20,000 bases of DNA. It comes from an uncultured virus (IMG/VR IMGVR_UViG_3300028805_000002). Lineage: Duplodnaviria > Heunggongvirae > Uroviricota > Caudoviricetes. Position numbers and translations under genes: made by a program. Of the stretch, positions 19-15,857 are shown in pieces. The notes beneath the pieces were generated by a model. The model saw nothing but the letters and a program-made list of their open reading frames with translations. It had not been told where the DNA came from and did not search any database. Every line of letters starts with the position of its first letter. Positions within the stretch are counted from its first letter, which is position 1. The DNA lies in the IMG/VR virus record IMGVR_UViG_3300028805_000002; one strand, given 5' to 3'.

Positions 19-162
19 TTACCTCTTCCCATATATGCACTCCCTGGTAAGATACTGGCGAGTGCCCGGGACAATCTTCAGACAGGTCTGAAGTCCGTTT
101 CTCTTAATGAGTTCCCGATACGGAATCTTGTATGTGATTGTGGATTTTGCTGTGTTGGTCAT
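19..162 (-). CDS. Small hypothetical protein, 47 aa (MTNTAKSTITYKIPYRELIKRNGLQTCLKIVPGTRQYLTRECIYGKR)
   Basis: Translated by hand (below the ORF-track cutoff). ATG at 162-160, strong SD AGGAGGA (complement of 172-178), TAA at 21-19. Confidence 0.55.
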   Translation of the reverse strand: MTNTAKSTITYKIPYRELIKRNGLQTCLKIVPGTRQYLTRECIYGKR

Positions 163-264: not shown

Positions 265-370
265 CTGAGTTGTGCGCTTTAAAGTGCCCAGTTGCGTGTC
301 GCGTGTTTATGCGGGTTCACGCGTTTCCGTTCTGTCTACCGTATGGTGTCTTCCCGTATGAGGCTATGCC

Positions 371-874
371 TCAGAATCCTAAGACCTCTGCAACACCGTC
401 CCAGTTCTCTACCTTGAGGGCATATTCATTTGCCCAACCCTCGTGATGTTCCCAGTCGGAGCGTGTAGCCTTGAGTTCCTTGCCAGGGAAAACCCAGGCG
501 CCGTCCTTGAGCGGTCTGATACGAGCGTAGGCTGTCTTGTCTCCCTCTACCTTAGAGATGAGGATGTGTCCCTTCGCGTTTGTTCTGAAGATGTACTTGT
601 CCTTCGGGATGTCTGCTAAGAAGGCGTCGGCAGTGGGGTGCTTGCGTTCCTTCTTCTCTGCGGGTGCTTCCGGTGTCGGCTCTGCAGGTGTCTGTTCTGC
701 GGGAATCTCTTCCTGAGTCTGTTCTGCGAGTGCCTTCTGTTCTGTCTGATATGCTTCAAAGATAGGCATAAAGTCAACTTTGGGCATCTGTTCTGTCTTG
801 CCGTCAACTATGCGGGCAAAGTATGTCTTGTGATTTGTCTTGTATTCTGTGCCGTTGTATGTAAACTGTGTCAT
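371..874 (-). CDS. Hypothetical phage early-type protein, 167 aa, two domains joined by a Pro/Glu/Ala-rich linker
   Basis: ORF track gives 371..946. The real start is most likely ATG at 874 (MTQFTYNG), preceded by SD AGGAGGA (882-888). Linker EIPAEQTPAEPTPEAPAEKK. No family recognised. Confidence 0.8.
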   Translation of the reverse strand: MTQFTYNGTEYKTNHKTYFARIVDGKTEQMPKVDFMPIFEAYQTEQKALAEQTQEEIPAEQTPAEPTPEAPAEKKERKHPTADAFLADIPKDKYIFRTNAKGHILISKVEGDKTAYARIRPLKDGAWVFPGKELKATRSDWEHHEGWANEYALKVENWDGVAEVLGF

Positions 875-956
875 AATAAAATCCTCCTGTGATTTTGTAA
901 AATTGATTTTTTGATGTGGTGCAACTGAACACTTTAACGCGCACAACTCAGTGGCG

Positions 957-1365
957 CACGTTTTCGAGTGCTTTACTTTTGCGCATTGTTATATGCGCTT
1001 AGAAGTACAGGTCATCGTGTAAATCTTCGTGTAATTTGCGCGCGCTTGTAATTACGATTGTGTCGTTATACTCATCATTGACGCAAGTACGATAGAATAA
1101 GAAGAAATCATCAAATTCGGCACAATGTGAATTGAGTTCTGTAATACAGTCAAATATTATCTTTTCGATATTTTCAAATTCGCTGTAAAAGTCTTTATTG
1201 ATACAGCACAAAAAAGCATTACAATTTATCGCTTCATCAAATTGTGCTAAATTGTATTTTTCAAGAATTGAATAGTAGAGTTCATAATTTTTTGTCATTG
1301 TCTTTTATCTCACTTTCATTAGATTTTTTGAGACAATGCGCAAAAACAAAACACTCGAAAACGTG
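957..1365. repeat. 33-bp inverted repeat pair (957-989 / 1333-1365) enclosing the 99-aa ORF
   Basis: CACGTTTTCGAGTGCTTTACTTTTGCGCATTGT vs ACAATGCGCAAAAACAAAACACTCGAAAACGTG: 30/33 complementary. All 3 mismatches are G-T/G-U on the - strand. Confidence 0.95.
999..1298 (-). CDS. Small acidic, Cys-containing hypothetical protein, 99 aa, lacking Gly, Pro and Trp
   Basis: A 300-nt ORF in otherwise stop-rich AT-rich DNA. GG-free SD-like GAAAGTGAG (1316-1308) before the ATG. About 20 D/E vs 7 K/R, and 6 Cys. Confidence 0.7.
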   Translation of the reverse strand: MTKNYELYYSILEKYNLAQFDEAINCNAFLCCINKDFYSEFENIEKIIFDCITELNSHCAEFDDFFLFYRTCVNDEYNDTIVITSARKLHEDLHDDLYF

Positions 1366-2301
1366 ATATTTTGCGCGATATTTTGCACTTTGCATACATT
1401 TTGCGCTTAGATAAAATCAATTATCTAAGAATAGAGCGCGCACTTATAAAATACAGATAGACTTTCAAATTTACTCTAACAAACAATAGTGTTTGAGTGC
1501 ATTTCACAGCGTAGTAATGAACAAGACTTCAATACAACTATGCAACAAGTATATTGTCGTTCGCGTTTACTAATAATTCGCGCATAGTGTTTTTCTACTA
1601 TTCGCACTATTTCACAACAGTGCTATTTTATGACTGTTTATAGCAATAAACTCAAAAATCAACTAATTTTATAGTTAGTATTCACATACTAATAACTATT
1701 ATGCAATTCGTTTATCTAGTGAATTATAACAGCACTCGATTATAATAATCACGTACTATATTATTACACTTTACTATCAACACAGCGCAAACGATTAAAT
1801 AGTTAAGTCTTGTTTTAGAATGATTATATTGTCGAACTAAAGTGTTAAATAATGCACATTACAAGTTACTTTGAGTGTAAGACAATACACTACACAAAAT
1901 ACTTTTATTAGTTTTTTCTTTTGTGTTTTACGTTTTATCACGTTCTAAAACAGTGTCACTAATTACTTAAAAGAAACACAGTGTATTTTTTCAAGTATCA
2001 TTCACTAAACGCGTAAAAGACTAGTGATTTTTATCTGTATTTATTTGTCAAGTTACAGTGTTATTACTTAAAGTATTCGCAACAACTTTTTAGCACTCAT
2101 TACGCGTTAACTCGATATACTCGAATAATACGTTATACTTCAGCGCAAGAACTATAAACAACTAGTGATTATAGAGAACGTATGACTAACTTGTGTATGC
2201 TTGCTAGTTCGTTCTTTTGTTATGCATAGAGTAACGCTTATTAAACGATATTTCAATACAACTTTTGACTTATTTGTTCGATAACGAACAAAAACACGTC
2301 A
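1121..2301. other. GG/CC-dinucleotide-free tract
   Basis: Read base by base: last GG at 1119-1120, next GG at 2302-2303; no CC on the + strand between 888 and 2738. Confidence 0.9.
1460..2300 (-). ncRNA. Candidate large structured non-coding RNA or ssDNA element (unassigned)
   Basis: No convincing ORF. Nested helices 1520-1529/1805-1814, 1557-1565/1786-1794, 1619-1630/1725-1736, 1884-1891/1980-1987, 1915-1922/1969-1976, 1924-1930/1946-1952, 2104-2113/2229-2237. Confidence 0.35.
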
Positions 2302-2352
2302 GGTTGTTCGATAAATACATTAAAACAATAATAATTTATCATTATTCGATAA
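2274..2352. repeat. Three copies of TT(G/A)TTCGATAA; the first also forms the hairpin TTTGTTCG-ATAA-CGAACAAA
   Basis: Copies at 2274-2284, 2304-2314 and 2342-2352. Confidence 0.7.
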
Positions 2353-2409
2353 ACGCTATATAATATGCTTATTATATATAATAAATACGCGTATGCGCAT
2401 GGGGTAATA

Positions 2410-2430
2410 TGATAATGATTATCATTTTCA
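2410..2430. promoter_or_regulatory. Fur-box-like operator
   Basis: TGATAATGATTATCA (2410-2424) is a perfect 7-1-7 TGATAAT-N-ATTATCA. 2411-2429 matches the classical GATAATGATAATCATTATC at 17/19. Confidence 0.6.
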
Positions 2431-2626
2431 AATTCATACATTAGTCTAGTTAGTATCTTTATATAACAGATTATTAGTGTATAGCGCTGTAACGCTCATA
2501 TTTAACGTATAACGCGCTCTAGCACTTATACACAAGAATTTATATTCACAGCGCACGAGCGCGTCACAGATCAAATTTAAAATTTAAGTTAGCACGCATA
2601 TACAAGCGCATACACACGGGCATATT

Positions 2627-2656
2627 TATACGCACGCGCGCGCGCGCACGTACACG
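2627..2656. repeat. 30-bp perfect alternating purine-pyrimidine tract containing (CG)6; Z-DNA-prone
   Basis: TATACGCACGCGCGCGCGCGCACGTACACG. Confidence 0.85.
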
Positions 2657-2817
2657 GGATTCTCGAACTCTTACGTCGAACTTTGTAGACAAGTATGCGC
2701 GGTGCTTGAAAATAGAGGGGATTGGGCATAAAAGTAATCCTAGAGGTGGGTAGGTCGAGTGTGGTAGTAAGGTCGTTCAAGAACGACAGGAAAGGCGTGG
2801 AAAATTAAAAGTAAAAT

Positions 2818-2838
2818 TGAGAATGATTATCATTTTCA
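2818..2838. promoter_or_regulatory. Second Fur-box-like operator, upstream of the morphogenesis operon
   Basis: TGAGAATGATTATCATTTTCA, 20/21 identical to 2410-2430. Confidence 0.55.
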
Positions 2839-2868
2839 GTTTCAAGGTCGAGGTTTGTAGACAAAGTC

Positions 2869-2898
2869 TTGACTAATAGTAGGAGTATGTGTTATTTT
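2869..2898 (+). promoter_or_regulatory. Putative sigma-A promoter for the rightward operon
   Basis: TTGACT (2869-2874), 18-nt spacer containing TG, then TATTTT (2893-2898). Confidence 0.35.
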
Positions 2899-3016
2899 GT
2901 ATATGTAATTGGAGAGATACAATGTTATCGAGGGTCTCTTAGTAAGTCGCCGCAGGGCGCAGGAACGACGGGTGATTAACAGTATATCTTTAGTTATAGA
3001 AGGATAATATAAATAT

Positions 3017-3277
3017 ATGGAAAATGAAACACTAGCAACTGAAATGTTGCACGAACTGAAATCGAATGGCCGAAGGTGGTTTATAGCATTTCTAGTCGTT
3101 CTAATGCTTTGGTTTGCTACTATCGGTGCGTTTCTTTGGTATATCTCTTTGCCCGTGGACGAAACTTCGGTGGAACAGTATGCCGAAGGCAACGACAATT
3201 CTTTTGTTGGTATAGGTGATATGAATGGCGGCGTATCAGAAAGTTACAAGACGCAGGAGAGCACTTCGCAGTCGTAA
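3017..3277 (+). CDS. Small single-pass membrane protein, 86 aa
   Basis: Hydrophobic stretch WFIAFLVVLMLWFATIGAFLWYI after RR; AAGGA SD upstream; first gene of the operon. Confidence 0.75.
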   Translation: MENETLATEMLHELKSNGRRWFIAFLVVLMLWFATIGAFLWYISLPVDETSVEQYAEGNDNSFVGIGDMNGGVSESYKTQESTSQS

Positions 3278-3302
3278 GTCAACCCGTAGAAGGAGACACT
3301 AA
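3225..3302 (+). CDS. Arg-rich 25-aa peptide (MAAYQKVTRRRRALRSRKSTRRRRH)
   Basis: Translated by hand. SD AGGTGA at 3214-3219, ATG at 3225, TAA at 3300-3302, 2 nt before the next ATG. 10 Arg, 2 Lys, no acidic residues. Confidence 0.5.
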   Translation: MAAYQKVTRRRRALRSRKSTRRRRH

Positions 3303-3304
3303 TT

Positions 3305-3622
3305 ATGGCAGCGGCTGGTCAAACACGTACTATCAAAAAGTTACAACAGGCTCTCCAAATGGAAGGAGAGTTAATTCTTATCTCTACTTCTCAATTCTTT
3401 AGTTTGGAAAAGCAGACCACTGTAACAAGATACCACGTTAAGAAACAAGTTCAATCAGGTGAGAAGTATAAGTCTTCTCAGGTTGAACTTTTTTCTTCTT
3501 GTTCACAAATCCAGATTACTCTCTTTTTAAGAGATTATTATTACGAGATTAAAGGATATGAGGTGCCGCAGGATAATCCTTATTGGTTAGCGGCAAAGAA
3601 GAAATATTTTGAGGAGCATTAA
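3305..3622 (+). CDS. Hypothetical phage protein, 105 aa
   Basis: ORF with AAGGAG SD, tightly packed before terS. Confidence 0.8.
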   Translation: MAAAGQTRTIKKLQQALQMEGELILISTSQFFSLEKQTTVTRYHVKKQVQSGEKYKSSQVELFSSCSQIQITLFLRDYYYEIKGYEVPQDNPYWLAAKKKYFEEH

Positions 3623-3624
3623 GT

Positions 3625-4143
3625 ATGGCTGAAAAGAAGAAGAAACCGGGTTATGGTGGAAATCCTAAAGGGTCTGAATATAAACTCTCTATCAGAGAGC
3701 AAAAGTTCGTGTCTCTCTATTTAGAGTACGGTGACCCGAAGAAAGCAGTTGTTGAGGCAAAGTTCAATACTACTGCACCTAGTCAGTACGCTAAGAAACT
3801 CTTGGCTAAGCCGAAAATTCAAAGAGAGATTGCATCACAAATGGAACTCTTTAGAAATGAGTGTATCGCCAGTTCGCAGGAGATTATGAACTTCTACACT
3901 CTCACAATGCGTGGAGAAGTTAAAGACCAGTTCGGTCTTGACGCTACTCTTTCTGACAGACTTAAGGCGGCTGATGCGCTCGCTAAGAGACAGATTGACG
4001 CCAGAGCACTTGCAGAGAAGGCGAGTGACAATGAGTTTAAGGTTACACTTACTTGGGGTGCACCTGCTACTCCTGAGCCTAAACCTGAAGAAGATTTAGA
4101 TGACACCGCTGATGAAGAGGAAGACATAGATGCCGAACAGTAA
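3625..4143 (+). CDS. terS: Terminase small subunit (Terminase_2 / SPP1 G1P-like)
   Basis: N-terminal HTH pattern LSIREQKFVSLYL...AVVEAKF...LLAKPKIQREI and the IAS.QEIM.F.T..MRGEVKDQFGLDATLSDRLKAA..LAKR segment; lies upstream of terL. Confidence 0.9.
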   Translation: MAEKKKKPGYGGNPKGSEYKLSIREQKFVSLYLEYGDPKKAVVEAKFNTTAPSQYAKKLLAKPKIQREIASQMELFRNECIASSQEIMNFYTLTMRGEVKDQFGLDATLSDRLKAADALAKRQIDARALAEKASDNEFKVTLTWGAPATPEPKPEEDLDDTADEEEDIDAEQ

Positions 4144-4525
4144 ACACATCATTATAGACGATAAAGAATATAAGGTGCCTATCGTTGAGTTACAGCGAAA
4201 GGGCGATATTCTTGACTTGACTGCGAACAGAACAGAGGATGGTGTTCTTCACAGAGATGTTATAGGTACATACTATAACTACACGCTTACAATCGGAATT
4301 ATTAACGACCCAGAGTTGTATGAAGAGTTGTGGAACGTCTTAACTGCACCCGTGGCAAGTCACTGGATAGAGTTGCCACACGACCACGTGAGATTTGAAG
4401 GCTACTTCGGTAGTTGTAAAGATAATATTCAGATGATAACAGAAGATGGCTATAAGGCAAAAGGACTGTCTTTCAATCTTGTTGCCACTAGAGCCGCAAG
4501 GACGGCAGTAAATGGCGGTAATTAA
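4130..4525 (+). CDS. Distal-tail (Dit/DUF6711-like) protein, in an atypical position between terS and terL
   Basis: Motif ANRTEDGVLHRDVIGTYYNYTL...YEELWNVLTAP...GLSFNLVA resembles the small beta-rich proteins that normally follow the tape measure gene. Overlaps both neighbours by 14 nt. Confidence 0.6.
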   Translation: MPNSKHIIIDDKEYKVPIVELQRKGDILDLTANRTEDGVLHRDVIGTYYNYTLTIGIINDPELYEELWNVLTAPVASHWIELPHDHVRFEGYFGSCKDNIQMITEDGYKAKGLSFNLVATRAARTAVNGGN

Positions 4526-5771
4526 CGTAAACTTACAAGAATGTATCATACCTATGTATAAAGAAGTGCTCCAAGATGTCTTGGAGCATAAACATACTCA
4601 CTTTATTTTTCCTGGCGGAAGAGGTAGTTGTAAATCTTCTTTTGTAGGCATAGCAATACCTCTTGTACTTGTGAATAATCCGACAGTACACGCAGCCTGC
4701 TTCAGAAAAGTAGGAAATACTATTCAAAACTCTATCAGAGCACAAATTGAGTGGGGAATTTACAAATTAGGTATGCAGGACCTGTTTAATATACCTGCCT
4801 CATACGCAAATCCGATAACTTTTAAGCCTACTGGACAAAAAATCTACTTCTTAGGTCTCGATAAACCAGCAAAAATCAAGTCAATTAAGCCAAAATTCGG
4901 CTACATAGGCATTACTTGGTTCGAGGAGTTGGACCAATTCGCTGGCGAGAATGAAATTCGTACTGTAACACAGTCTACAATGCGTGGTGGCGATAAATAT
5001 TGGGACTTTAGAACATTCAATCCGCCGATTTCAAAGAATAATTGGGCAAATATGTATGCAGATAAGGCCGCTATTTACTCTAAAAGTAGTCTTGTTACCC
5101 GAAATACGTATCTTTCAGTACCGCCAGAGTGGCTTGGACCACAGTTTTTTGAAGAAGCGGAAGAACTTAAAGTACTTAATCCACGCGCTTATGAGCACGA
5201 ATATCTTGGAGTTGCTACAGGAACGGGCGGAGATGTCTTTGAAAACGCCTGTGAACTCGATATGTCAGGTATGATTGACAACTTCGACCATATCTATAAC
5301 GGAATTGACTGGGGTTTTGCAAGAGACCCGTTCAGATTTGTTCGTATGCACTTTGACGCAAGAAAACTCGACCTATATATCTTTGACGAGTTTTCTACCT
5401 ATAAGACACGTAACGAGGACACTTTCCACAGACTATATGATGAAGAGTGCAAAATATCCCGAGACGAATTGGTAACAGCCGATAGTGCGGAAGAAAAATC
5501 TGTTGCAGACTTTAGGGCGTATGGTGCGTTTATCAGACCTGCTAAGAAAGGTCCTGACAGTGTTCGTTATGGAATTAAGTGGTTACAGGGACTTAGACAC
5601 ATCTATATAGACAAAAAACGCTGTCCTGAGACGTTTTATGAGTTCATAAACTATGAATATGAGCGAGATAAGGACGGAAACTTCATTAGTGCGTACCCCG
5701 ATGCAGACAATCATAGTATCGACGCGGTACGCTATGCACTGGAAAACTACTGTAACCGCAGAGGAACATAA
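4512..5771 (+). CDS. terL: Terminase large subunit, PBSX/SPP1 family (headful type)
   Basis: Walker A GGRGSCKS, Walker B WFEE, TFNPP coupling motif, nuclease motifs GIDWG and DADNHSIDAVRYA. Confidence 0.97.
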   Translation: MAVINVNLQECIIPMYKEVLQDVLEHKHTHFIFPGGRGSCKSSFVGIAIPLVLVNNPTVHAACFRKVGNTIQNSIRAQIEWGIYKLGMQDLFNIPASYANPITFKPTGQKIYFLGLDKPAKIKSIKPKFGYIGITWFEELDQFAGENEIRTVTQSTMRGGDKYWDFRTFNPPISKNNWANMYADKAAIYSKSSLVTRNTYLSVPPEWLGPQFFEEAEELKVLNPRAYEHEYLGVATGTGGDVFENACELDMSGMIDNFDHIYNGIDWGFARDPFRFVRMHFDARKLDLYIFDEFSTYKTRNEDTFHRLYDEECKISRDELVTADSAEEKSVADFRAYGAFIRPAKKGPDSVRYGIKWLQGLRHIYIDKKRCPETFYEFINYEYERDKDGNFISAYPDADNHSIDAVRYALENYCNRRGT

Positions 5772-5786
5772 TTTAGGCTTTATCCA

Positions 5787-5815
5787 TTTACTTCTATCTA
5801 CAAAAGTTATAGAAT
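5787..5815 (+). promoter_or_regulatory. Sigma-A promoter giving a predicted leaderless mRNA for the DUF4417 gene
   Basis: TTTACT (5787-5792), 17-nt spacer, TAGAAT (5810-5815). +1 falls at about 5822, the A of the ATG; no SD upstream. Confidence 0.55.
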
Positions 5816-5821
5816 TATGAT

Positions 5822-6439
5822 ATGAGCGAGATGTTAAACCTGCTAACTATGGCGTTTGACGGTGTTGGTGAGTACAACATACCGCAAATTAAGCCAGTTA
5901 CTGAACTCTATGTCAAAGATTGGATAGGGTTTAACTTCGTAGCGTCCACAAGAAAGCAACGAGAAATCACAGGCGTACATTTTTACATAGACGATTATCA
6001 ATTTGAGCGTGTTTGGAACTTTCCTTGGCGCTTTTCCAAGACTTTTAACGAGTTCGGAGCGATAATGACGCCCGATTTCTCAACTTATCTTGATTTTCCT
6101 AAAGCAGTTCGCATATTTAACCACTATCGTAAGCATTGGTGTGGCGCTTATTGGCAAGAAATGGGCGCAACAGTCATTCCTACGATAGAGTGGGGCACTG
6201 AAGAGGACTATTCTTGGTGTTTTGATGGTGAACCAGAAGGAGGAATAGTGGCTGTTTCTAATGTAGGCATTATGCGAAGTAAAGAACTGCGTGAAAATTA
6301 TATGAAAGGCTACAAAGAGATGCTTACAAGACTTCAACCAAAGGAAGTTTTAATGTTTGGGCATATCTTTGATGATTATCCTGGTCCTGTTCATTACATT
6401 CACTATCAGCAAGCAAAGGGTGAACAAGGAGAAGAATAA
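5822..6439 (+). CDS. DUF4417 family protein
   Basis: Signature motifs HFYIDDYQFERVWN, TPDFSTYLDFP, HWCGAYWQ, VIPTIEWG, CFDGEP, VAVS. Confidence 0.9.
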   Translation: MSEMLNLLTMAFDGVGEYNIPQIKPVTELYVKDWIGFNFVASTRKQREITGVHFYIDDYQFERVWNFPWRFSKTFNEFGAIMTPDFSTYLDFPKAVRIFNHYRKHWCGAYWQEMGATVIPTIEWGTEEDYSWCFDGEPEGGIVAVSNVGIMRSKELRENYMKGYKEMLTRLQPKEVLMFGHIFDDYPGPVHYIHYQQAKGEQGEE

Positions 6440-6774
6440 TGGCGAACAAGGCAAGATACTACGGATTGGCAAAAACAGAGCAAAAAGATATGAAAAAGAG
6501 AGCGTCAGAGACCCCGTTTATTAACGTCGAGGAACTTACGCCGTGGACTGTTTACTCTGTTTTAGCACTTTATCCAACAATAGATGCGTCCTCGTCTCAG
6601 ACAGCAACACGCAGAATGAAGGAAGAACTGATAAAAAACGGGTTTAATGGTAAAATAGAAGTGAATGGTAGCAGTATTTCAGACGGCACAAACACTTATG
6701 TTTTAACTAAAACCAGTTCTAATGGCATAATGATAGTAAAGGAAACACACGAAGAAAAGAGACGTAAGAGGTAA
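6439..6774 (+). CDS. Hypothetical basic protein, 111 aa
   Basis: TAATG stop/start overlap with the DUF4417 gene; AAGGAG SD. Confidence 0.75.
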   Translation: MANKARYYGLAKTEQKDMKKRASETPFINVEELTPWTVYSVLALYPTIDASSSQTATRRMKEELIKNGFNGKIEVNGSSISDGTNTYVLTKTSSNGIMIVKETHEEKRRKR

Positions 6775-6777
6775 AAT

Positions 6778-8556
6778 ATGAGCGTATGGTCAACTATAAC
6801 AGAAAAGGTAAAGGGGATTATAACTAAAATGATTGGTAGACAAGACATTGAAGAAGTATTGAGAGTAAAACCCGCAATTTCTAACGAAATGGTGCAGGCC
6901 ATTGAGTTATGGTCGGCTATGTATGAGGGAAGAGCGCCGTGGCTCAAAGAGCCAACAAAAGATGACCCGTCAGCAGTTAAATCGTTAGGATTACCTCAAC
7001 TTATTGCGAGTGAAAAAGCGAGAACGGCGCTTATTGAGTTCGAGAGTGAAATTACAACACCTATTCTCGATAGCGAGCCTGCTACTCCCAACTATCTGAA
7101 CAAGGATAATGTAGGAACAGACGGTCAACCCGAGCCGATGGTATCTACACCTCTTGTTATGAAGGATATTCCTAAGGGTAGTACAAAAAGAGCACAGTTT
7201 CTTAATAAACAGTATGTAAAACTCAAAGAGGCACTTCGTATTCAACTTGAGTACGGTATTGCAAAGGGTGGACTTGTTGTTAAGCCCTACATAATTAAGC
7301 ATAACAATCAGACGCTTCATCAAGAAACAGATATGATGACAGGTGAAAAGAGTCAAGACGAGAGCGACACTGGTTATGAGTTCGAGTTTGACTACATTCA
7401 GGCAAACGAGTTCTATCCTCTCGCATTTGACGGAAGCGGAAAGATGACTGAAGCCGCCTTTATTCAGCGAAAGGTAGATAAGGACATTATTTACAGCCGT
7501 CTTGAATATCACAAGTTGGAAGATAACACTGTTACAGTTATAAACAAGGCGTTTAAGGCAAACTCTCGTTCTATGAAGGCGGACTATCTTGGAGAGGAAA
7601 TTCCGCTTACAGATGTTCCAGAGTGGGCGATGCTCTCAGCAGAAACGAAGATTGCCAATGTAAATCGTTTGCTTTTTGCGTACTTTAAGATGCCTGAAGC
7701 AAACACGATTGATACACACAGTCCTCTTGGTGTAAGTGGCTTTGATAAAGTTAAGAGCCTTATAGCGGAAGCCGATAGACAGTATTCAAGACTTCTTTGG
7801 GAGTTCGAGGGTGGCGAACTTGCTATTGATATTGATAGAAACGCGCTGACTTGGCTTGAAGACCCGAAGAATCCTGAAAGCGGTCACTCTGTTATGGGAA
7901 CATTACAGAACAGGCTTTATCGTAAAGTTGACCTTAATGAAGACAATACGTATGAAGTTTTCTCTCCTACACTTAGAGACCAGTCGATTATAAACGGACT
8001 TAACTGTATCTTAATGAGAATAGAAGACGGCGCTGGAATTTCTCGTGGCACTCTTTCTGACGTTGTAAGCGAGGCTAAGACCGCGACAGAGTTAAGAATG
8101 TTGCGTATTAGAAGTTATGAGACCAACGCACACATACAGAAAGCCACAGAGAAGATGCTTAGAGACGTTATATATGTAATGAATGTCTACTGTGACCTTT
8201 ACAAAATTACAGAAGAGGGCGAGTATGAGGTATCATTTGAGTGGGATGACAGTATTTTGAGCGATAGCGATACGGAACTTACAAAGAGAATGATACTTAT
8301 GCAGAATGGTCTTGCTGGTAAGGTTGAAACTCGTATGTGGTACTTTGGCGAAACAGAGCGTCAGGCAAGAGAGGCACTTATCAAAATTCAGCAAGAAAAT
8401 CTTGAGGCTGTTCAGCAGAATGTTGCCGAAATGGAAATACTCGGACAAACACCAGAAAGTCAAAAGAACGAAAGTCCAAAAGCACCCAACAATAACAACA
8501 ACAATAACAGCAACAATAATTTTAAGAGTGGTGACAATCAATATAGCAACAAATGA
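6778..8556 (+). CDS. Portal protein (A118/SPP1 Gp6-like)
   Basis: 592 aa after terL; motifs YFKMPEANTIDTHSPLGVS, QYSRLLWEFEGGE, KTATE, VSFEWDDS. Confidence 0.92.
   Translation: MSVWSTITEKVKGIITKMIGRQDIEEVLRVKPAISNEMVQAIELWSAMYEGRAPWLKEPTKDDPSAVKSLGLPQLIASEKARTALIEFESEITTPILDSEPATPNYLNKDNVGTDGQPEPMVSTPLVMKDIPKGSTKRAQFLNKQYVKLKEALRIQLEYGIAKGGLVVKPYIIKHNNQTLHQETDMMTGEKSQDESDTGYEFEFDYIQANEFYPLAFDGSGKMTEAAFIQRKVDKDIIYSRLEYHKLEDNTVTVINKAFKANSRSMKADYLGEEIPLTDVPEWAMLSAETKIANVNRLLFAYFKMPEANTIDTHSPLGVSGFDKVKSLIAEADRQYSRLLWEFEGGELAIDIDRNALTWLEDPKNPESGHSVMGTLQNRLYRKVDLNEDNTYEVFSPTLRDQSIINGLNCILMRIEDGAGISRGTLSDVVSEAKTATELRMLRIRSYETNAHIQKATEKMLRDVIYVMNVYCDLYKITEEGEYEVSFEWDDSILSDSDTELTKRMILMQNGLAGKVETRMWYFGETERQAREALIKIQQENLEAVQQNVAEMEILGQTPESQKNESPKAPNNNNNNNSNNNFKSGDNQYSNK
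8488..8520 (+). repeat. (AAC/AAT)n trinucleotide run encoding the portal's poly-Asn tail
   Basis: AACAATAACAACAACAATAACAGCAACAATAAT = NNNNNNNSNNN. Confidence 0.8.
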
Positions 8557-9740
8557 TTACCGATGAACAGATAGAGGACATCATATTTAAGTACACAAGT
8601 CGGCAAGACGAGTTCAATATGTCTGTAATAAATGTTATTGCAGACAGACTGGCTCATATTGCCGATTTTGATGCACTTAACACGATGGACAGTGTTACGG
8701 TACGCATTAAAGATATTAAGAAACTAAAGGAACTTCACGCTGAATATAGAAAAAGTCAGAGCAAGCACCTGAAAGATACGTTGTGGTGGATTGCTGTCGT
8801 TGTGTATTTAGAAAGTCTGAAGTTTTACGAGGTTAAGACAGAACTTGAAATGAACAAGGCATTGATGCGTGCAATAGAGGATATAACCATAGACGCGCAA
8901 AAAAGCCTTGATAAGGTCTTATCGCACCCTGCCATTGTAATGCGCGATTTAAAGTCTCCTGTCGTTCTTAAAGCCTACAATTTAGAGCAAGCATATAATT
9001 CAATACTTCAAGAGGCCGTATCGTACAGTAATGTATCGAAAGAGTTACGGGACATAGCGTTAAAACGCACAGAAACGCAGTTATTTGACAGCGGCGTGCG
9101 ATATATGACAAATGTATCATCTGACAGCGTAAAAGACACTGTAAGCGCAAATAACACGATTAGAATGAGTGTGTTAGATAGCATTAAAAATCTGATAAAT
9201 AAAATGCAAGAAATTATGGGCAAGCAGTTTGGTGCTGATGCGGTAGAACTGTCTGCTCATATCTATCCTGCACCAGACCACGCACCTGCTCAAGGACATC
9301 AATTTTCTCTTAAAGAGGTCGAAAAGATGCAGAGTGGTATGGATTTTGAAGACTTGCAAGGTCATAGTTACATCGGGTTTGAGCGTAATATTGGGGAGTG
9401 GAATTGCAGACACTATTTTATGCGTATAAAGAAGGGCACATCTCCAACTTATACGCAAGAGCAATTAAACAAGATATTAGAGGATAATGAGCGCGGTTAT
9501 ACTGATGAACAAGGAAAACACCGCACGTTATACGAGTGTACACAAGTTCAGCGCAGATATGAACGAGAAATCAGAAAAGCAAAAGAAAAATACCTGTATG
9601 GCAAAACACTAAACGACCAAATAATGATGTCGAGAGCCAGAAACAGGGTGGGTGTATTAACAACGCAGTATAAACAATTCAGCAAAAAGTGTGATATTCC
9701 CGCAAAACTTGAAAGAATTAGGGTGAAATATTATAAGTAA
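8553..9740 (+). CDS. Minor capsid protein (Phage_min_cap2 / head morphogenesis family)
   Basis: Follows the portal with an ATGA overlap; motifs ELSAH..PAPDHAPAQG, WNCRH, YECTQVQRRYEREIRKAK. Confidence 0.88.
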   Translation: MITDEQIEDIIFKYTSRQDEFNMSVINVIADRLAHIADFDALNTMDSVTVRIKDIKKLKELHAEYRKSQSKHLKDTLWWIAVVVYLESLKFYEVKTELEMNKALMRAIEDITIDAQKSLDKVLSHPAIVMRDLKSPVVLKAYNLEQAYNSILQEAVSYSNVSKELRDIALKRTETQLFDSGVRYMTNVSSDSVKDTVSANNTIRMSVLDSIKNLINKMQEIMGKQFGADAVELSAHIYPAPDHAPAQGHQFSLKEVEKMQSGMDFEDLQGHSYIGFERNIGEWNCRHYFMRIKKGTSPTYTQEQLNKILEDNERGYTDEQGKHRTLYECTQVQRRYEREIRKAKEKYLYGKTLNDQIMMSRARNRVGVLTTQYKQFSKKCDIPAKLERIRVKYYK

Positions 9741-9742
9741 TG

Positions 9743-9771
9743 TTGACATTTGCGCCTATATATTATAATAT
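9743..9771 (+). promoter_or_regulatory. Sigma-A promoter for scaffold/capsid genes
   Basis: Consensus TTGACA (9743-9748), with TATAAT at 9764-9769 (15-nt spacer) or TAATAT at 9766-9771 (17-nt spacer). Confidence 0.6.
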
Positions 9772-9780
9772 GGAAGTATG

Positions 9781-9803
9781 AAATTGAGAATTGTTCTCAA
9801 TTT
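9781..9803. promoter_or_regulatory. Palindromic operator (Fur-box-like) just downstream of the promoter
   Basis: AAATTGAGAA-TTG-TTCTCAATTT; the core TGAGAATTGTTCTCA resembles the sites at 2410 and 2818. Could instead be a weak terminator hairpin. Confidence 0.45.
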
Positions 9804-9950
9804 TTATGGCTCCTAACGATAATACAGGCAATACGCCTTTATTATATTGTCTCGTTCCAGACATTTAAACAGGAACACAATCAACGCAGACCGCGACTGC
9901 GACATTATAAATAAAGCGGATATAAAAGATTGTTTTAGGAGGAATTTTTC

Positions 9951-10634
9951 GTGAACATCAAAGAGATTTTTGACAAGGCAGAGAACGGCACTTTAACTTT
10001 TGAACAGTTTGAGGCAATCGCTAAAGACGGTGGTGCGAAGTTTACCGACCTTTCTGAAGGCAAGTACGTCAGTAAGTCAAAGTATGACGATGATATTGGT
10101 GCTAAAGACACTTCCATCACACAACTTAATGACACTATCGCACAGAGAGATAAGGACCTTGGTGACTTGCAGACAAAGTTAAAGGAAGCAGGAACTGACA
10201 CATCGAAGTTAGCCGATTTACAGGCAAATTTTGACTCTTTGCAGAGTAAGTACACCGCAGATATGCAGGCTTATCAACAGCAACTTGCTGACCAAAAGTA
10301 TGAGTTTGCAGTTAAGGAGTTCGCTAACGGCAAGGAATTTACGAGTCAGGCGGCTAAGAGAGATTTTGTTAGGTCTTTGTTAAGCGAAAAGTTGAAGATG
10401 AAGGACGACACTATCATAGGTGCAGAAGACTTCGTTACTGCTTATACAAAGGACAACGAAGATGCTTTTGTAACTAAGAAAGAGTCCAACGAACCTGGAA
10501 CTCCTAATAACGGAAGTAACCAGGGTAAGCCACAATTCGTGAGTACGACACCAGGTACTACTCCGAAAAAGACACCTACATTGACAGAGTTAATGAAGGC
10601 GGCAAATGAAAACCCTGGTACTCAAATATTGTAA
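9951..10634 (+). CDS. Capsid scaffolding protein (Phage_GP20-like)
   Basis: GTG start with AGGAGGA SD; GKYVSKSKY motif, coiled coil, Pro/Gly-rich C-terminus; directly precedes the major capsid gene. Confidence 0.88.
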   Translation: MNIKEIFDKAENGTLTFEQFEAIAKDGGAKFTDLSEGKYVSKSKYDDDIGAKDTSITQLNDTIAQRDKDLGDLQTKLKEAGTDTSKLADLQANFDSLQSKYTADMQAYQQQLADQKYEFAVKEFANGKEFTSQAAKRDFVRSLLSEKLKMKDDTIIGAEDFVTAYTKDNEDAFVTKKESNEPGTPNNGSNQGKPQFVSTTPGTTPKKTPTLTELMKAANENPGTQIL

Positions 10635-10666
10635 AAACAAGACATTGAATTAAGGAGGAAACAAAA

Positions 10667-11881
10667 ATGTCGGAAGTTTTTAACGCTAAGATTTTTAATG
10701 GCGAAGTATTCCAGAAGTACGTTGACCGTATTCCTAATACCAAGTTAAACGAACTCATTAAGTCCAGAGCAATCGTTCAGAGACCTGACCTTGCATCTGC
10801 AATGGCTGACCAGGCTGGTGGAAACTACATCACAACACCTCTCAAGGGTCTTATCAGTGGTTCTGTTCCGCTCAACTATGATGGTGAAACAAACATTACT
10901 GCCAACTCTACAAAGACATTCTCTCATTCAAGAGTTGTTATAGGTCGTGCTAATGCTTGGACAGAGAGAGACTTCTCCTATGACATCACAGGCGGTGTTG
11001 ACTTTATGGAGAACATCGCACAGCAGATTTCAGAGTATTGGGACGAAGTTGACCAAGATACACTCGTTCATATTCTTAATGGTGTATTCAATATGTCTGA
11101 CGCTAAGGGTCAAGAGTTCGTACAGACACATACCTATGACGTAACAGCCGCTACAAACAGCGAGGGTGTTGTTGGTTATATGGACGGTACAACGCTCAAT
11201 ACTGCTATTCAGAGAGCGTGCGGTGACCATAAGGGTAAGTTCTCTATGGCAATTATGCACTCTTTCGTTGCTACAAACCTCGAGAACCTCAAGTTGCTCG
11301 TTTATCTCAAGTATAACGATGCTAACGGTCTTCAGAGAGACCTTTCCATCGGTACGCTCAATGGTAGACTCGTAATGGTTGATGATAGTATGCCTACTGC
11401 TGAGGACGAGTCCACAGCAACATACACGAAGACATCTGACCAGGCTGTTGTTGCAGGCAAGACATATTACACACGTTCTGGTTCTTCTCCGAACTATGTA
11501 TACACACCTGTTGCAGAGCCTGCCGATGCTAACATCGGTTCTTACTATGAGAAGACCGCCGCTGGTAAGATTGCATACACAACTTATGTATTTGGCGACG
11601 GCGCTATCGAGTATACAAACTGCGGTGCTAAGGTGCCTTATGAAATGAGCCGTGACCCTATGACAAATGGTGGTCAGGACACTCTCTATGCACGTCAGAG
11701 AAAGTGCTTCGCTCCTTACGGCATCTCTTTCACAAAGGACACAATGGCAAGTCTTTCTCCTACGGATGCTGAACTTGAACTCGGTGCTAACTGGGAACTC
11801 GTAAACAGCAAGGAGGCTAACGGCAAGCAGTATATCAGCCTCAAGGCTATCCCGATTGCAAGAATTATCTCTCTCGGCTGA
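10667..11881 (+). CDS. Major capsid protein with an inserted Tyr/Thr-rich module
   Basis: FNAKIFNGEVF start; motifs GRANAWTERDFS, MHSFVATNLENL, TLNGRLVMVDD, RDPMTNGGQDTL; strong AAGGAGG SD. Confidence 0.93.
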   Translation: MSEVFNAKIFNGEVFQKYVDRIPNTKLNELIKSRAIVQRPDLASAMADQAGGNYITTPLKGLISGSVPLNYDGETNITANSTKTFSHSRVVIGRANAWTERDFSYDITGGVDFMENIAQQISEYWDEVDQDTLVHILNGVFNMSDAKGQEFVQTHTYDVTAATNSEGVVGYMDGTTLNTAIQRACGDHKGKFSMAIMHSFVATNLENLKLLVYLKYNDANGLQRDLSIGTLNGRLVMVDDSMPTAEDESTATYTKTSDQAVVAGKTYYTRSGSSPNYVYTPVAEPADANIGSYYEKTAAGKIAYTTYVFGDGAIEYTNCGAKVPYEMSRDPMTNGGQDTLYARQRKCFAPYGISFTKDTMASLSPTDAELELGANWELVNSKEANGKQYISLKAIPIARIISLG

Positions 11882-11925
11882 TGGGATTTTAAGTTAAACA
11901 CTAGAGATATTAAGGAGGGTTTCAG

Positions 11926-12360
11926 ATGGTTTACTACTTAACGTATGACGAGTATTCAGATATGGGTGGTACACTTGACGAAACCCTCTTTGATACTCTT
12001 AGACTTGACGCACAAGGTTATATTGACTGGTATACGTTCAATCGTCTTTGGAAAGAAGAGTGGCGCACAGAAGAGATTATGGAACGTGTTAAGATTTGTA
12101 TGTATCAACTCATTGGATTGGTTGCTACAAAGGCAAATCTTATCACACCCCAAACAAATTCTGCTGGTATCAACATCAATGCACAAGTATCACAGCAATC
12201 TAACGATGGTGTCTCAACTACATACGGCGTATTAAGCGGAGAACTTCTGTTTACACACGCAAAGAAAGAGATAGAGGACAGCATCAATCGTTATCTTGCA
12301 GGCGTTATGAACAGTGCTGGACGCAAGTTACTGTATAGAGGTTTATATCCTAATGAGTAA
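11926..12360 (+). CDS. Head-tail connector (adaptor, SPP1 gp15-like)
   Basis: Motifs YLTYDEY..MGG, IDWYTFNRL, SQQSNDGVSTTY, LLYRG; follows the capsid gene. Confidence 0.8.
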   Translation: MVYYLTYDEYSDMGGTLDETLFDTLRLDAQGYIDWYTFNRLWKEEWRTEEIMERVKICMYQLIGLVATKANLITPQTNSAGININAQVSQQSNDGVSTTYGVLSGELLFTHAKKEIEDSINRYLAGVMNSAGRKLLYRGLYPNE

Positions 12361-12817
12361 TTTTCCGTTTGCTTGGTGGGACAAGACGTTGACAATCTAT
12401 AATCGAATTGTTGACCCAAATACTCAACGAGTTAGTTGGCAAAGAACAGTTGTTAGAAACTGTTTTTGGAAATATGTCAACAATATCTATAATATGGGTA
12501 GATACGGAATGTCCTCTCTGGGTATTCGTGTAGAGACAAAAGACATCATTTGCAGAATACCTAAAGATAAGCGTTTCGTTGACAAAAGAGCGTGGAAGTC
12601 TCTTGATGATAAGACAGGCCACTTTACTCTTGGTAATGGTGATATAATTATCTTAGGTGAAGTGCAGGATGTTATTGACGAGTATACAGCAGGACAGCGT
12701 TCTACTGATTTACTCGCAAAGTACAAAGAAGAGGACGCGTGTCTTGAAGTTGATACTTATGTCGATAACGTACAGACAGGTGTAGGCTTAGAGCATTACA
12801 GAGTAATAGGTAAGTGA
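12353..12817 (+). CDS. Head-closure / head completion protein
   Basis: Start placed at ATG 12353, overlapping the previous gene. Motifs TLTIYN...WQRTVVRNCFW, FTL..GDIIILGEV, LEHYRVIGK; synteny. Confidence 0.7.
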   Translation: MSNFPFAWWDKTLTIYNRIVDPNTQRVSWQRTVVRNCFWKYVNNIYNMGRYGMSSLGIRVETKDIICRIPKDKRFVDKRAWKSLDDKTGHFTLGNGDIIILGEVQDVIDEYTAGQRSTDLLAKYKEEDACLEVDTYVDNVQTGVGLEHYRVIGK

Positions 12818-12818
12818 T

Positions 12819-13523
12819 ATGGCTAACGGAATAATGTATCACGTACAGGTAACTAACGGTGTAAAGAAGTGGGGTGTTGATTGGACAGACTCGCTTCAGT
12901 TTTTAACCTGTAAAACACATATGACTGATTTAGCCAAAGGCTATCGTTACTATATCAACAAATATGTGCCTAAAAAGAGCGGACGTCTTCGTAGGTCGGC
13001 AAGACCAAAAGGCACTACTGACGGGGCCGCATCTGGTTCAGCAAGAGTGTATTGGGGTCAGACATCAAAGACAGAGAAGTACGCACACTATCAGTTTGTT
13101 GGTGATGTGTACTCGCCTAGCAAGCCTGTGTTTTTAAAGAATGGCAAACAGATTGGCTGGGTTTCACCGAAAGGTAAAAAGAAAGTTCTTTCAAGTCCCG
13201 TAAGAAAACTCGGAGAAGGTACACCGTACACGTACACTGTACGCAATGGACTTGTAAAAACACCGATGGGTTACAAGTTAGTCAAAGGAGACTTTGAAGT
13301 AACAGTTAAGGGCTATACCACAAAAGGCACTGGCTACAACTGGATTCAGAGATTTCACGATGATAATGGAGACTTCGGAGAAAAGGCGATTAACATACGT
13401 GCTGGTAGATATATGTATGAGAAGTTCTGTAATGAACTTCACAAACACGATAAATCGGTACGTGCAAGAGGCGGCTACTCAATTTTAAGAAGTTGGAATC
13501 AGATTAAGAATAGAGTTGATTGA
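12819..13523 (+). CDS. Neck / minor capsid protein (Minor_capsid_2 / HK97 gp10-like position)
   Basis: Motifs YVPKKSGRLRRS and YAHYQF; basic protein; synteny. Confidence 0.7.
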   Translation: MANGIMYHVQVTNGVKKWGVDWTDSLQFLTCKTHMTDLAKGYRYYINKYVPKKSGRLRRSARPKGTTDGAASGSARVYWGQTSKTEKYAHYQFVGDVYSPSKPVFLKNGKQIGWVSPKGKKKVLSSPVRKLGEGTPYTYTVRNGLVKTPMGYKLVKGDFEVTVKGYTTKGTGYNWIQRFHDDNGDFGEKAINIRAGRYMYEKFCNELHKHDKSVRARGGYSILRSWNQIKNRVD

Positions 13524-13524
13524 T

Positions 13525-13998
13525 ATGGATAAAAACAAGGCTACATTAGATTTTCTTGCTACTTATTCAGGTATGGCGACAAGCCCTATCTTTGTCAACT
13601 TTATGAACGCAAAAGATGATGATGTTCAGTTTTTAACCGCGTCAAATGACGTTGCAACACAGCGTCCTTTTATAGATGGAAGTGTAATGAAGCAATACAC
13701 ATTCTCTCTAATTATAACCAAGACCGTAACTGATATGCCTATTGCCAAAGACATTATGACTAATGAAAACATTGACGATATAGCAGACCTTCAGAAATTT
13801 ATGGATTGGGTTAATGAACAAGGAGAAAACAACATTTTTCCTGATTTTGGAGAGTTGTGTGAGATTGAGAAAATGTACACAACATCAGAGAGTCCCGATT
13901 TAACGGGCATTAACACAGAAGTCAGTCCTGCTCTCGCTCTGTATAGTATGGAGATTAGGATTGATTATATAGACTATTCAAAAGTTATTTGGTCATAA
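13525..13998 (+). CDS. Tail terminator / tail completion protein (putative)
   Basis: Precedes the major tail gene; motifs FIDGSVMKQYTF, FMDWVNEQ..NNIFPDFG, YSMEIRIDY. Alternative TTG start at 13516. Confidence 0.65.
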   Translation: MDKNKATLDFLATYSGMATSPIFVNFMNAKDDDVQFLTASNDVATQRPFIDGSVMKQYTFSLIITKTVTDMPIAKDIMTNENIDDIADLQKFMDWVNEQGENNIFPDFGELCEIEKMYTTSESPDLTGINTEVSPALALYSMEIRIDYIDYSKVIWS

Positions 13999-14016
13999 GA
14001 AAGGAGAAAGAAGTTT

Positions 14017-14682
14017 ATGGCTATTAACAAGTTTAACCTTAATCTCCATCAGAGAGCAGAAAGAAAGTTGCTCATTACCGTTGCTGAGTGGAGGGACAAC
14101 GATAGCGGTAAGTTGTACGTTCTTCAGGACAAGGAGCCTGGAGATTGGGACACAAAGTACACTGAGTATTACACGAAGAGCAACGACACATACTCTCCTG
14201 TAACTGGTGATACTGCACCTGCTTGGGCAGCATCCACATACTACACAAGAGTTAATCGTGAAATTCTTGGTCGTAGAACAGAGGACTCTTCTATTGAGTA
14301 CAACGCTGATATTGAGACAACCACAGATATTCTCGGTATCAACTACACAGACCTCAACAGAACACAGCCTCAGCAGGACTTCGACCCGTATCTCATTCTC
14401 GGTGGCTCTTTGCTTGGTGAGAAGTTGAACGACATTCGTAAGAGAAACGCACTCACAGAGTTGTCCGACTTTACTCTTTACGTTATTACAGCGTTTGTTG
14501 GTGATGCAGAGAACGGCTATGAGGCAGAGCGTCATTCAGGTTGTACAATCACATACAACTCTATCGGTGGCGATGCAAACGTAAATATGCCTATATCCGC
14601 ATATTTCTCTAACAATCTCACAAACGGCGTTGTTGATAAGTTGTCAGACGATTTCACATTTACGCCCGATGTTAATGTATAA
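14017..14682 (+). CDS. Major tail (tube) protein with an inserted Tyr/Thr-rich module
   Basis: Motifs ILGRRTEDSSIEYN.DIETTTDILG and SIGGDANVNMPI; strong GAAAGGAG SD; synteny. Confidence 0.85.
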   Translation: MAINKFNLNLHQRAERKLLITVAEWRDNDSGKLYVLQDKEPGDWDTKYTEYYTKSNDTYSPVTGDTAPAWAASTYYTRVNREILGRRTEDSSIEYNADIETTTDILGINYTDLNRTQPQQDFDPYLILGGSLLGEKLNDIRKRNALTELSDFTLYVITAFVGDAENGYEAERHSGCTITYNSIGGDANVNMPISAYFSNNLTNGVVDKLSDDFTFTPDVNV

Positions 14683-14736
14683 TTGAGTTATGAACTCCTG
14701 TGCGCTGGATGTTCCTCGCACAGGAGCATACTCAAT
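14682..14736 (+). promoter_or_regulatory. Long hairpin between the major tail and chaperone genes
   Basis: CTCCTGTGCG(14695-14704)/CGCACAGGAG(14717-14726), extended by TATG/CATA and ATTGAG/CTCAAT; no U-tract. Confidence 0.7.
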
Positions 14737-14752
14737 ATTACAGGAGGTATTT

Positions 14753-15268
14753 ATGATAGACGATTCCATTAAGAAAGACACAGAGCAAGTTGTAGACCAG
14801 GAGATTACAGACGTAAATCTTGGCTTTGTTGAAAAGAAGAAGTTTAGAATTAGTGGAGATAGTAAGCGTATTCTGGAACTTAATGTTTCAGACCTTAATA
14901 TCTTATCAAGACTTAAGGTAGGTTATCCCAAACTCAATACGTTGTTTGACGAAGCACAGAAGAAGATTTCAGAGATTCCTGATGATTTATCTAAGGAAGA
15001 ACTCATTGGAGAACTTGCGGATAGACTGACTGAAATTGACAGGGATATGCGAGAGACCATCGACTATATCTTTGATACAAACGCTTCAGAAGTGTGCGCT
15101 CCATCAGGAAATATGTATGACCCTGTTAATGGACAACTTCGTTATATGCGCGTACTCGACACTCTGACAGAATTATATACTAACGGTTTACACGCAGAGT
15201 TCGACAAGATGAAGAACAGGGTTGAGAAGAGAGCAGAAAAGTACACCAAGAAAAGAAGTAAGAAGTAA
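14753..15268 (+). CDS. Tail assembly chaperone
   Basis: Start at ATG 14753 after CAGGAGG; helical acidic protein between the tail tube and Gp15-like genes. Confidence 0.75.
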   Translation: MIDDSIKKDTEQVVDQEITDVNLGFVEKKKFRISGDSKRILELNVSDLNILSRLKVGYPKLNTLFDEAQKKISEIPDDLSKEELIGELADRLTEIDRDMRETIDYIFDTNASEVCAPSGNMYDPVNGQLRYMRVLDTLTELYTNGLHAEFDKMKNRVEKRAEKYTKKRSKK

Positions 15269-15852: not shown

Positions 15853-15857
15853 GCGGT

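Follow-up and report, generated by a model that had tools for sequence, protein, structure and literature searches.

What could lead a phage to keep G and C in one of its expression units but hardly ever place two of either side by side, even at the cost of amino acids in the encoded protein? The question arises near the left end of a 20,000-nucleotide stretch of DNA from an uncultured member of the Caudoviricetes (IMG/VR record IMGVR_UViG_3300028805_000002), the whole of which we call the window. An initial annotation had drawn attention to a leftward ORF of 99 amino acids (gene 1) that lacks glycine, proline and tryptophan, the three residues whose codons all contain GG or CC. It had proposed that the acidic product either disables a defence targeting GG/CC or allows the expression of modified DNA, and these two options are still the two leading readings of the locus.

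The phage is a Firmicutes-type siphovirus. From 3017 rightwards the window carries a head and tail module (terminases, portal, capsid and tape measure, assigned with PHROGs), small leftward genes lie before 1300, and the large terminase subunit (TerL) is 46-48% identical to those of Blautia and Clostridium phages. The runs that contain the stretch, two of DNA and two of RNA, are all labelled sheep gut. No host was found via genome scans or spacers, and 401 genomes of one family gave no spacer-like match among the matches listed; names on binned contigs were not counted as host evidence. Within the structural module, an AAC repeat at 8487-8520 encodes a poly-Asn run at the portal C-terminus and gave spurious short matches in the 401-genome scan, and a 205-aa gene between terL and portal (5822-6439) matches phrog_8680 and the nuclease family phrog_940.

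A local and strand-biased purge of GG and CC

Across 887-2400 the + strand holds no CC and five GG, whereas 2,000 base shuffles give 70.2 +/- 7.2 such steps with a lowest value of 44. Between the steps at 1119-1120 and 2302-2303 neither word occurs at all, and on its left the tract begins exactly where gene 2 has its GGAGG ribosome site. Over 2700-20000, by comparison, the observed/expected ratios are 0.69 for CC and 0.87 for GG. The two words are locally purged and common elsewhere in the window, which is the local pattern of a site-free region of the T7/T5 type. Furthermore, CG and GC are enriched about 1.8-fold in the tract. The two letters are thus retained without being doubled, and the composition of the tract is not mere A+T richness.

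The proposal that a constraint at the DNA level shapes the protein is borne out by these statistics (5 steps against 70 expected) and by a control set of 772 ORFs of at least 80 amino acids from 17 related records, in which seven lack both glycine and tryptophan and six of the seven sit in GG/CC-poor tracts. The purge described for the ORF itself is strong but not total, as two coding-strand CC steps remain at 1010-1011 and 1119-1120. Moreover, the residual steps are unevenly distributed between the strands. In the tracts of the window and of two related loci (L045 and L005), the + strand retains one CC against 24 GG (binomial 3e-8, or 0.003 without L005), and coding-strand CC in 887-2400 stands at 5 against 31 expected. 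The coding strand thus excludes GG, whereas it tolerates CC at a reduced level. The near-absolute loss of coding-strand GG accounts for the disappearance of glycine and tryptophan, and the milder treatment of CC for the exceptions seen with proline. We conclude that the GG/CC-free expression unit is real, that it is conserved and that its purge is biased between the strands. Its constraint is a matter of observation, and the reader of the two words and the task of the protein are matters of interpretation.

In the upstream region of the unit (Table 1), no ORF over 43 amino acids, no convincing sigma-A promoter and no Rfam match was found. Contigs from the RNA runs, which show neither strand, level nor ends, are absent over 2212-2917. 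The right tract boundary is conserved in the two related loci and is, on sequence grounds, a candidate packaging or end signal. The motif TTTGTAGACA occurs twice in this part of the window (2683-2692 and 2855-2864), with close variants at both places in L045 and L005, and is a candidate packaging or late-promoter signal. There is also a 27-nt element whose palindromic core we take to resemble a Fur box. It is present in two copies, one inside the tract (2410-2436) and one just ahead of the late promoter (2818-2844), and similar copies exist in L003 and L002.

Table 1. Features of the leftward unit and its surroundings, in window coordinates
Feature	Coordinates	Strand	Remarks
Gene 3	19..162	-	47 aa; 64% to L045 and 41% to L005 over 41-44 residues
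Stem 2, 3' arm	265..295	-	Gene 2 looped out; RNA contig ends at 287 and 291 (one sample)
Gene 2	371..874	-	167 aa; normal GG/CC content; GGAGG ribosome site
GG/CC-purged tract	887..2738	.	+ strand CC absent for 1,852 bp
Stem 2, 5' arm	921..951	-	31 nt, 90% complementary; two G.U and one mismatch; starts 5 nt past stem 1
Stem 1, 3' arm	957..989	-	Pairs with 1333-1365; gene 1 looped out
Gene 1	999..1298	-	ORF; six relatives at 64-85%; AlphaFold2 pLDDT 78.5; covered by RNA-run contigs
GG-less ribosome-binding region	1299..1323	-	Core AAAGTGAG at 1309-1316; nearly identical in L045, core common to L005
Stem 1, 5' arm	1333..1365	-	33 nt, 91% complementary to 957-989; 3/3 mismatches are G.U in the leftward RNA
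Upstream region	1366..2250	-	About 0.9 kb, GG/CC-free; RNA-run contigs reach 2207-2211
Right tract boundary	2480..2740	.	68-74% matches to L045 and L005, same position
Terminase small and large subunits	3625..5771	+	PHROGs; head/tail module starts here, adjoining the tract

Classical restriction-site avoidance as the cause of the tract is rejected. GATC, AGCT and CATG are near-absent outside the tract too (1/53, 0/45 and 0/50, with GCWGC at 3/21), and such a window-wide loss is what restriction avoidance would be expected to produce. GG and CC, unlike these words, are purged in the tract only. Sites of the classical kind are missing throughout the window, and within the tract GCGC and CGCG are even enriched. 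Palindromes that contain GG or CC are reduced and not purged (GGCC 8/33, CCGG 5/23), a pattern that is also seen in relatives without tracts. Likewise, synonymous depletion of GG/CC outside the tract is mild and is also found in tract-free relatives. The window strongly avoids GCWGC, GANTC and CTAG as well; the avoided set varies between relatives and might serve as a host fingerprint.

Gene 1 and its product

To judge from its relatives, its ribosome site and its confidently predicted fold, gene 1 is a real gene. Its product does lack glycine, proline and tryptophan throughout its 99 residues, an outcome expected by chance with a probability of about 1e-5 when residue usage is taken from 20 window ORFs (5,433 residues). 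The family consists of four clusters with seven sequences in all, which are 64-100% identical to the gene 1 product and have a common start and stop region. Their alignment contains an in-frame two-codon indel, and length is otherwise conserved. If the missing residues reflect the constraint, homologues should lack them too, and this holds for glycine and tryptophan (absent in 7/7) but not for proline, one of which is present in three of the seven.

The acidic composition reported earlier is confirmed (20 D/E vs 7 K/R, 6 Cys and 18 Phe+Tyr), and the protein has a pI of 4.26 and a charge of about -13. The motif LHEDLHDD, described as its C-terminus, is present, but the actual end is LHEDLHDDLYF, three residues further on. 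Small size and strong acidity are features of DNA mimics, and the protein indeed combines them, with a net D+E-K-R of 13 in 99 residues. This net acidity is matched by 12 of 213 small ORFs of related phages, which places gene 1 in the top 6%.

The suggested likeness to Ocr, Arn or anti-CRISPR (Acr) proteins did not extend to recognizable relationship, as no match to any of them appeared in sequence searches (PHROGs, Pfam, PDB) or among the matches listed in fold searches. AlphaFold2 models the protein as an alpha/beta fold whose best structural match, among those listed, is a HAD-family protein (Z 6.0, rmsd 4.2, 85 aligned), which is a generic alpha/beta resemblance. No clear match is among those listed from the fold and Atlas searches, and a profile search yielded, apart from the representative of the family itself, no more than two weak matches in very long proteins. 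DNA of gene 1 relatives was not found in viral/metagenome contigs or in five related records. New Acr families usually have no match to known ones. The protein could act like an acidic inhibitor, and it cannot be classed as an Acr, Ocr or Arn. More generally, the glycine-free proteins of such tracts offer natural examples of folds that do without this residue.

Gene 1 had also been put forward as the first protein of the leftward unit. This is probably so, but an ORF of 62 amino acids at 2253-2441 might precede it. That ORF, on the - strand, has no glycine or tryptophan and two prolines, the codons of which coincide with the GG steps of 2302 and of 2401-2403. A ribosome-site match was looked for and not found, and if the ORF is real, it would lie ahead of gene 1. 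Contigs from two RNA runs of one sample span gene 1 (1008-2207 and 954-1329), with strand and level not readable and DNA carry-over possible.

Ribosome site and gene-enclosing stems

The first genes of the window, L045 and L005 have a common GG-less ribosome core. GG is present within 20 nt ahead of the start of gene 2 and of 15 of 20 window genes. A search of viral contigs for the ribosome-site pattern gave no match. The protein encoded by gene 2 is 31% identical to its L045 counterpart and has no family match at E<0.01. No aca-type helix-turn-helix gene was seen beside gene 1 within the window.

Both gene 1 and gene 2 are enclosed by paired arms (Table 1), and in the predicted fold of the leftward RNA, stem 1 forms 36 continuous pairs, as in the long stems cut by RNase III-type enzymes. 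Gene-enclosing arm pairs are also found in relatives, with three each in L045 and L005 and two in L006. Across nine arm pairs, a count that leaves out one gapped L006 pair, there are 26 mismatches. Of these, 13 are G.U on the coding strand, five are G.U on the opposite one, every one of them in L045, and eight are G.U on neither. The RNA contig ends (287/291, 912/918, 954, 1329 and 1375) lie near the arms and mostly not inside them, three carry adapter remnants, and one contig of the same single sample crosses the 5' arm of stem 1. With end-paired stems of this kind, stable mRNAs of one gene each could be released by an RNase III-type enzyme. The idea that the repeats flank an invertible DNA segment has no support, given zero strand-switching joints among those listed.

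RNase III reportedly processes the early mRNA of phages T7 and SP82, and there, as here, long stems are located between consecutive early genes. Unlike in those phages, each stem of the present unit encloses an entire gene, which resembles the arrangement in pre-rRNA. Successive stems are arranged head to tail, and their cleavage is a prediction.

Tracts in related phages

Among 20 related loci anchored on a 105-aa gene, two (L045 and L005) have a long tract in the same place. The tract of L045 extends over 1,667 bp with zero GG/CC, and that of L005 has no CC and 15 GG in 1,751 bp. The CC-free spans measure 1,852, 1,951 and 1,811 bp in the window, L045 and L005, respectively, although their DNA is alignable in short blocks only. 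Short A+T-rich depletions are present at the position in L016, G001, L003 and L048. Nothing comparable is present in the remaining related loci, several of which are rich in CC at this position. A more distant phage contig of 75 kb (G009, TerL 66%) has at the corresponding position a tract of 1,377 bp with a single GG/CC, which contains two main genes of 118 and 153 amino acids, each without glycine, proline and tryptophan and each with a GG-less ribosome site, as well as hairpin terminators. The limits of this tract fall about 60 bp ahead of a perfect TTGACA-17-TATAAT promoter and about 30 bp past the last terminator, and the roughly 700 bp directly upstream of the unit are GG/CC-rich.

The proteins encoded in these tracts are diverse. 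The first gene of L045 specifies an acidic protein of 105 amino acids that, together with five relatives, has no glycine, no tryptophan and one proline. The slot in L005 is filled by a basic protein of 132 amino acids (no glycine or tryptophan, three prolines; 20 D/E and 25 K/R), that of G009 by a protein of neutral charge, and the 153-aa family of G009 lacks glycine, proline and tryptophan in 5/5 members. Thus, the tract genes differ among the window, L045, L005 and G009, yet every one is without glycine and tryptophan. Homology between gene 1 and the first gene of L045 is not established (hhalign probability 3%, E 0.015). The two protein models have a similar predicted order of secondary-structure elements and many top structural neighbours in common, all of them generic (best Z 6.0 and 8.2). 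DNA of relatives of the L045 first-gene family was not found in the contig search. In the first 100,000 of the 103,299 bp of SSU5 there is no long tract (longest 153 bp), and DnaB and RecA are the sole genes that this portion has in common with G009.

Several other features of the related contigs were recorded. The residual GG runs of L005 (860-2620) are all followed by A, six of them as ACGGAW, and this set is possibly an oriented binding site. Away from the terminase, G010:C56 has a non-coding GG/CC-free stretch of 317 bp and a second stretch, covering the start of a gene, in which one strand is free of GG (30136-30454 and 48502-49016), which are possibly tract remnants. Near-identical strong sigma-A promoters, one per small early gene, are present in G009 (L105, 4100-12500) and contain GG, unlike the tract promoter. 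On the - strand of L045 (1-1829) there is an unannotated gene pair, by eye an AAA ATPase and a vWA partner, that is also found in G006.

What might read GG and CC

Our best explanation, which we hold to be evenly balanced between right and wrong, is that gene 1 is the payload of a target-free unit and that its product disables a host factor that reads GG/CC. Specifically, the host factor would recognise GG/CC on incoming DNA, and because the words are too common to be removed genome-wide, they would be cleared just from the unit that needs to be expressed first. The gene 1 product would then disable the factor, and the remainder of the genome could be read. Clearing the first unit alone is sensible for a two-letter word if the product neutralises its reader. 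Long tracts at one position despite diverged DNA and different genes count for such a target-free unit, and the match of the G009 tract to a unit running from promoter to terminator counts for its being an expression unit. The patchiness of the trait among close relatives (2/20) is as expected under host-specific pressure. The tract statistics, the confinement of the GG/CC purge to the tract and the small size and acidity of the gene 1 protein also speak in favour. Furthermore, the purge ends at the ribosome site of gene 2, apparently in the same unit, which suggests that the constraint lifts once gene 1 has been made.

The likeliest reader, which we name tentatively, is a CRISPR-Cas system whose PAM consists of two letters (NGG for type II or CCN for type I-B), in which case the unit would be PAM-free and would carry a new anti-CRISPR. 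The two-letter targets known to us are PAMs. Type I-B systems of Clostridium use a CCN PAM, and strand preferences are given as template strand for type II and coding strand for type I-B (PMC8482600, in the part available). The few residual CC on the + strand (1 vs 24 GG) agree with the side that these preferences predict, a fit made after the fact. Type II-A spacers come from first-injected ends (PMC6546361, in its accessible part), spacers are directed against acr genes more than expected (bioRxiv 10.64898/2026.10.15.759504, likewise), and site-free early regions have been proven for type I restriction-modification in the first-injected DNA of T7-like phages (PMC12455610, likewise). No genome end was found in the contigs; the position beside terS suggests that the first-injected genome end may be near the tract.

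Several findings count against the counter-defence reading. Gene 1 has no homology or fold match to anti-defence proteins, the protein in the slot is basic in L005 and neutral in G009, the approximately 700 bp right upstream of the G009 unit are GG/CC-rich, and TTC, the type I-C PAM, is not depleted (52 vs 49.5). The CRISPR version is weakened in addition by the absence of a host and of a spacer match in 401 genomes (among the matches listed). The terminase resembles those of small clostridial phages. Under headful packaging, the DNA to enter first would vary, and avoiding sites in a single location would count for less, which would weaken the argument from first injection.

An undescribed defence as the reader within this scheme is unlikely. 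We consider somewhat less unlikely a proposal framed more broadly, that GG/CC on incoming DNA is read by a widespread and undescribed factor that belongs neither to CRISPR nor to the classical restriction enzymes and whose preference for one strand is linked to transcription. In response, unrelated phages would have recoded one unit in an alphabet of 17-18 amino acids, and the 99-aa protein would be the inhibitor of this factor.

A serious competitor, if on balance improbable, is that the phage modifies its own DNA at GG/CC and that the first unit stays unmodified, either because host RNA polymerase is impeded by a mark on the template strand or because marked DNA is cleaved by a modification-dependent nuclease. 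Gene 1 would make the modified rest readable or block the nuclease. A template strand without CC suits a bulky mark on C, and the coincidence of the G009 tract with a transcription unit is in keeping with this. G009 also has two TAGT glycosyltransferases with a ParB-like gene, a dGTP diphosphohydrolase-like protein and a PAPS-reductase-like protein, G001 has a larger glycosyltransferase cluster, and GGCC and CCGG are reduced, unlike the purged GATC, AGCT and CATG. However, the palindrome pattern is also present in tract-free relatives, TAGT is found in five of seven long related records of which G009 alone has a long tract, and the cultured TAGT phages c5 and jlb1 are without one (longest 90 and 128 bp). 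Among 54 of the 78 ORFs of G009, the other 24 being structural-region or opposite-strand frames, there is no C5 methylase, TET, hmC synthase or deazaguanine gene. Moreover, phage TET methylases prefer GpC (PMC8256090, as far as its available text goes), yet GpC is enriched in the tract.

The gene survey behind this comparison covers G009 and relatives, with the window's own replication and modification genes lying outside it. By itself TAGT is not a predictor of tracts, to judge from c5, jlb1 and the related records. The enzyme adds a second glucose on hmC (PMC13390438, in the part available). Beside the DNA polymerase of G001 (L035, 257-9660) there are genes for a DXD glycosyltransferase, nucleotidyltransferases, an unassigned 401-aa protein and a TAGT / ParB-like / TAGT series, and no TET or hmC synthase among the ORFs scanned.

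It is quite unlikely that the purge has some other origin and that gene 1 simply encodes an early regulator, or a protein for host takeover, of the ordinary kind and unconnected with a GG/CC reader. The filling of the slot by unrelated acidic, basic and neutral proteins would be in line with this, as would the short non-coding GG/CC-poor stretches that L016, G001 and G010 have without such a gene. Nevertheless, the purge stops straight after gene 1 even though gene 2 is apparently in the same unit, and three of the five gene families found in tracts are acidic.

A constraint at the RNA level, by which the first mRNA avoids a GG-cutting ribonuclease such as RegB, is very unlikely. Coding-strand GG is all but absent in four phages, ribosome sites included, and 13 of the 18 wobble-type stem mismatches favour the leftward RNA strand. 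However, a GG-specific RNase would not require coding-strand CC to be down as well (5 vs 31 expected), and the purge in G009 includes the promoter, which is untranscribed. Finally, a chance frame in low-GC DNA, with its composition a by-product of A+T richness, is hardly credible, since the family may number seven known sequences only but is conserved in length (apart from an indel of two codons that keeps the frame), in sequence (64-85% identity) and in its ribosome site, and has a confident fold, in a tract where CG and GC are enriched about 1.8-fold.

Implications and comparison with known systems

A purge that removes glycine, tryptophan and even the GG of ribosome sites implies a strong, as yet unnamed pressure on the phage DNA that is expressed first. 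If the reader to be disabled by a target-free unit is CRISPR-Cas, then an untargetable anti-CRISPR unit would represent an undescribed escape strategy, and scans for GG/CC-free islands would provide an annotation-free route to inhibitors. If instead a new defence or a DNA modification is involved, gene 1 and the genes swapped in relatives would lead directly there, and if an undescribed GG/CC-reading factor exists, the 99-aa protein would be a handle for finding it. We found no published description of a PAM-free or GG/CC-free phage region, or of a PAM-free acr unit, in a search that covered mainly papers available without subscription.

The gene 1 protein is presumably comparable to AcrIIA4 in being a protein of about 100 amino acids, acidic, alpha/beta and early, from a Firmicutes-type phage. 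It is unlike Acrs of this type in having no sequence or fold match and no aca gene seen beside it. Mild genome-wide PAM depletion in phages (PMC4246573, in its available part) resembles the present case as selection against PAM words and differs in that the loss here is near-total and confined to one unit. For plasmid leading regions, the accessible portion of PMC13478746 describes no consistent motif depletion. The TAGT-family glycosyltransferases of the relatives recall hypermodification by C5-methylase, TET and glycosyltransferase (PMC8256090, in the part available), but methylase and TET are absent among 54 of the 78 ORFs of G009, and GpC is enriched here.

T7-like and T5-like phages, with Ocr (gp0.3) as first product, have site-free regions that are injected first (PMC12455610, in the part available), and these differ from the present tract in several respects. 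The purged word has two letters here instead of 4-13, so amino acids and the GG of ribosome sites are lost, the purge is strand-biased, first injection is presumed, and the protein has no homology to Ocr. What the systems share is a target word that one early region lacks and the rest of the DNA contains, a first-encoded protein that is small and acidic, its first place being probable here, and a region that adjoins the packaging genes.
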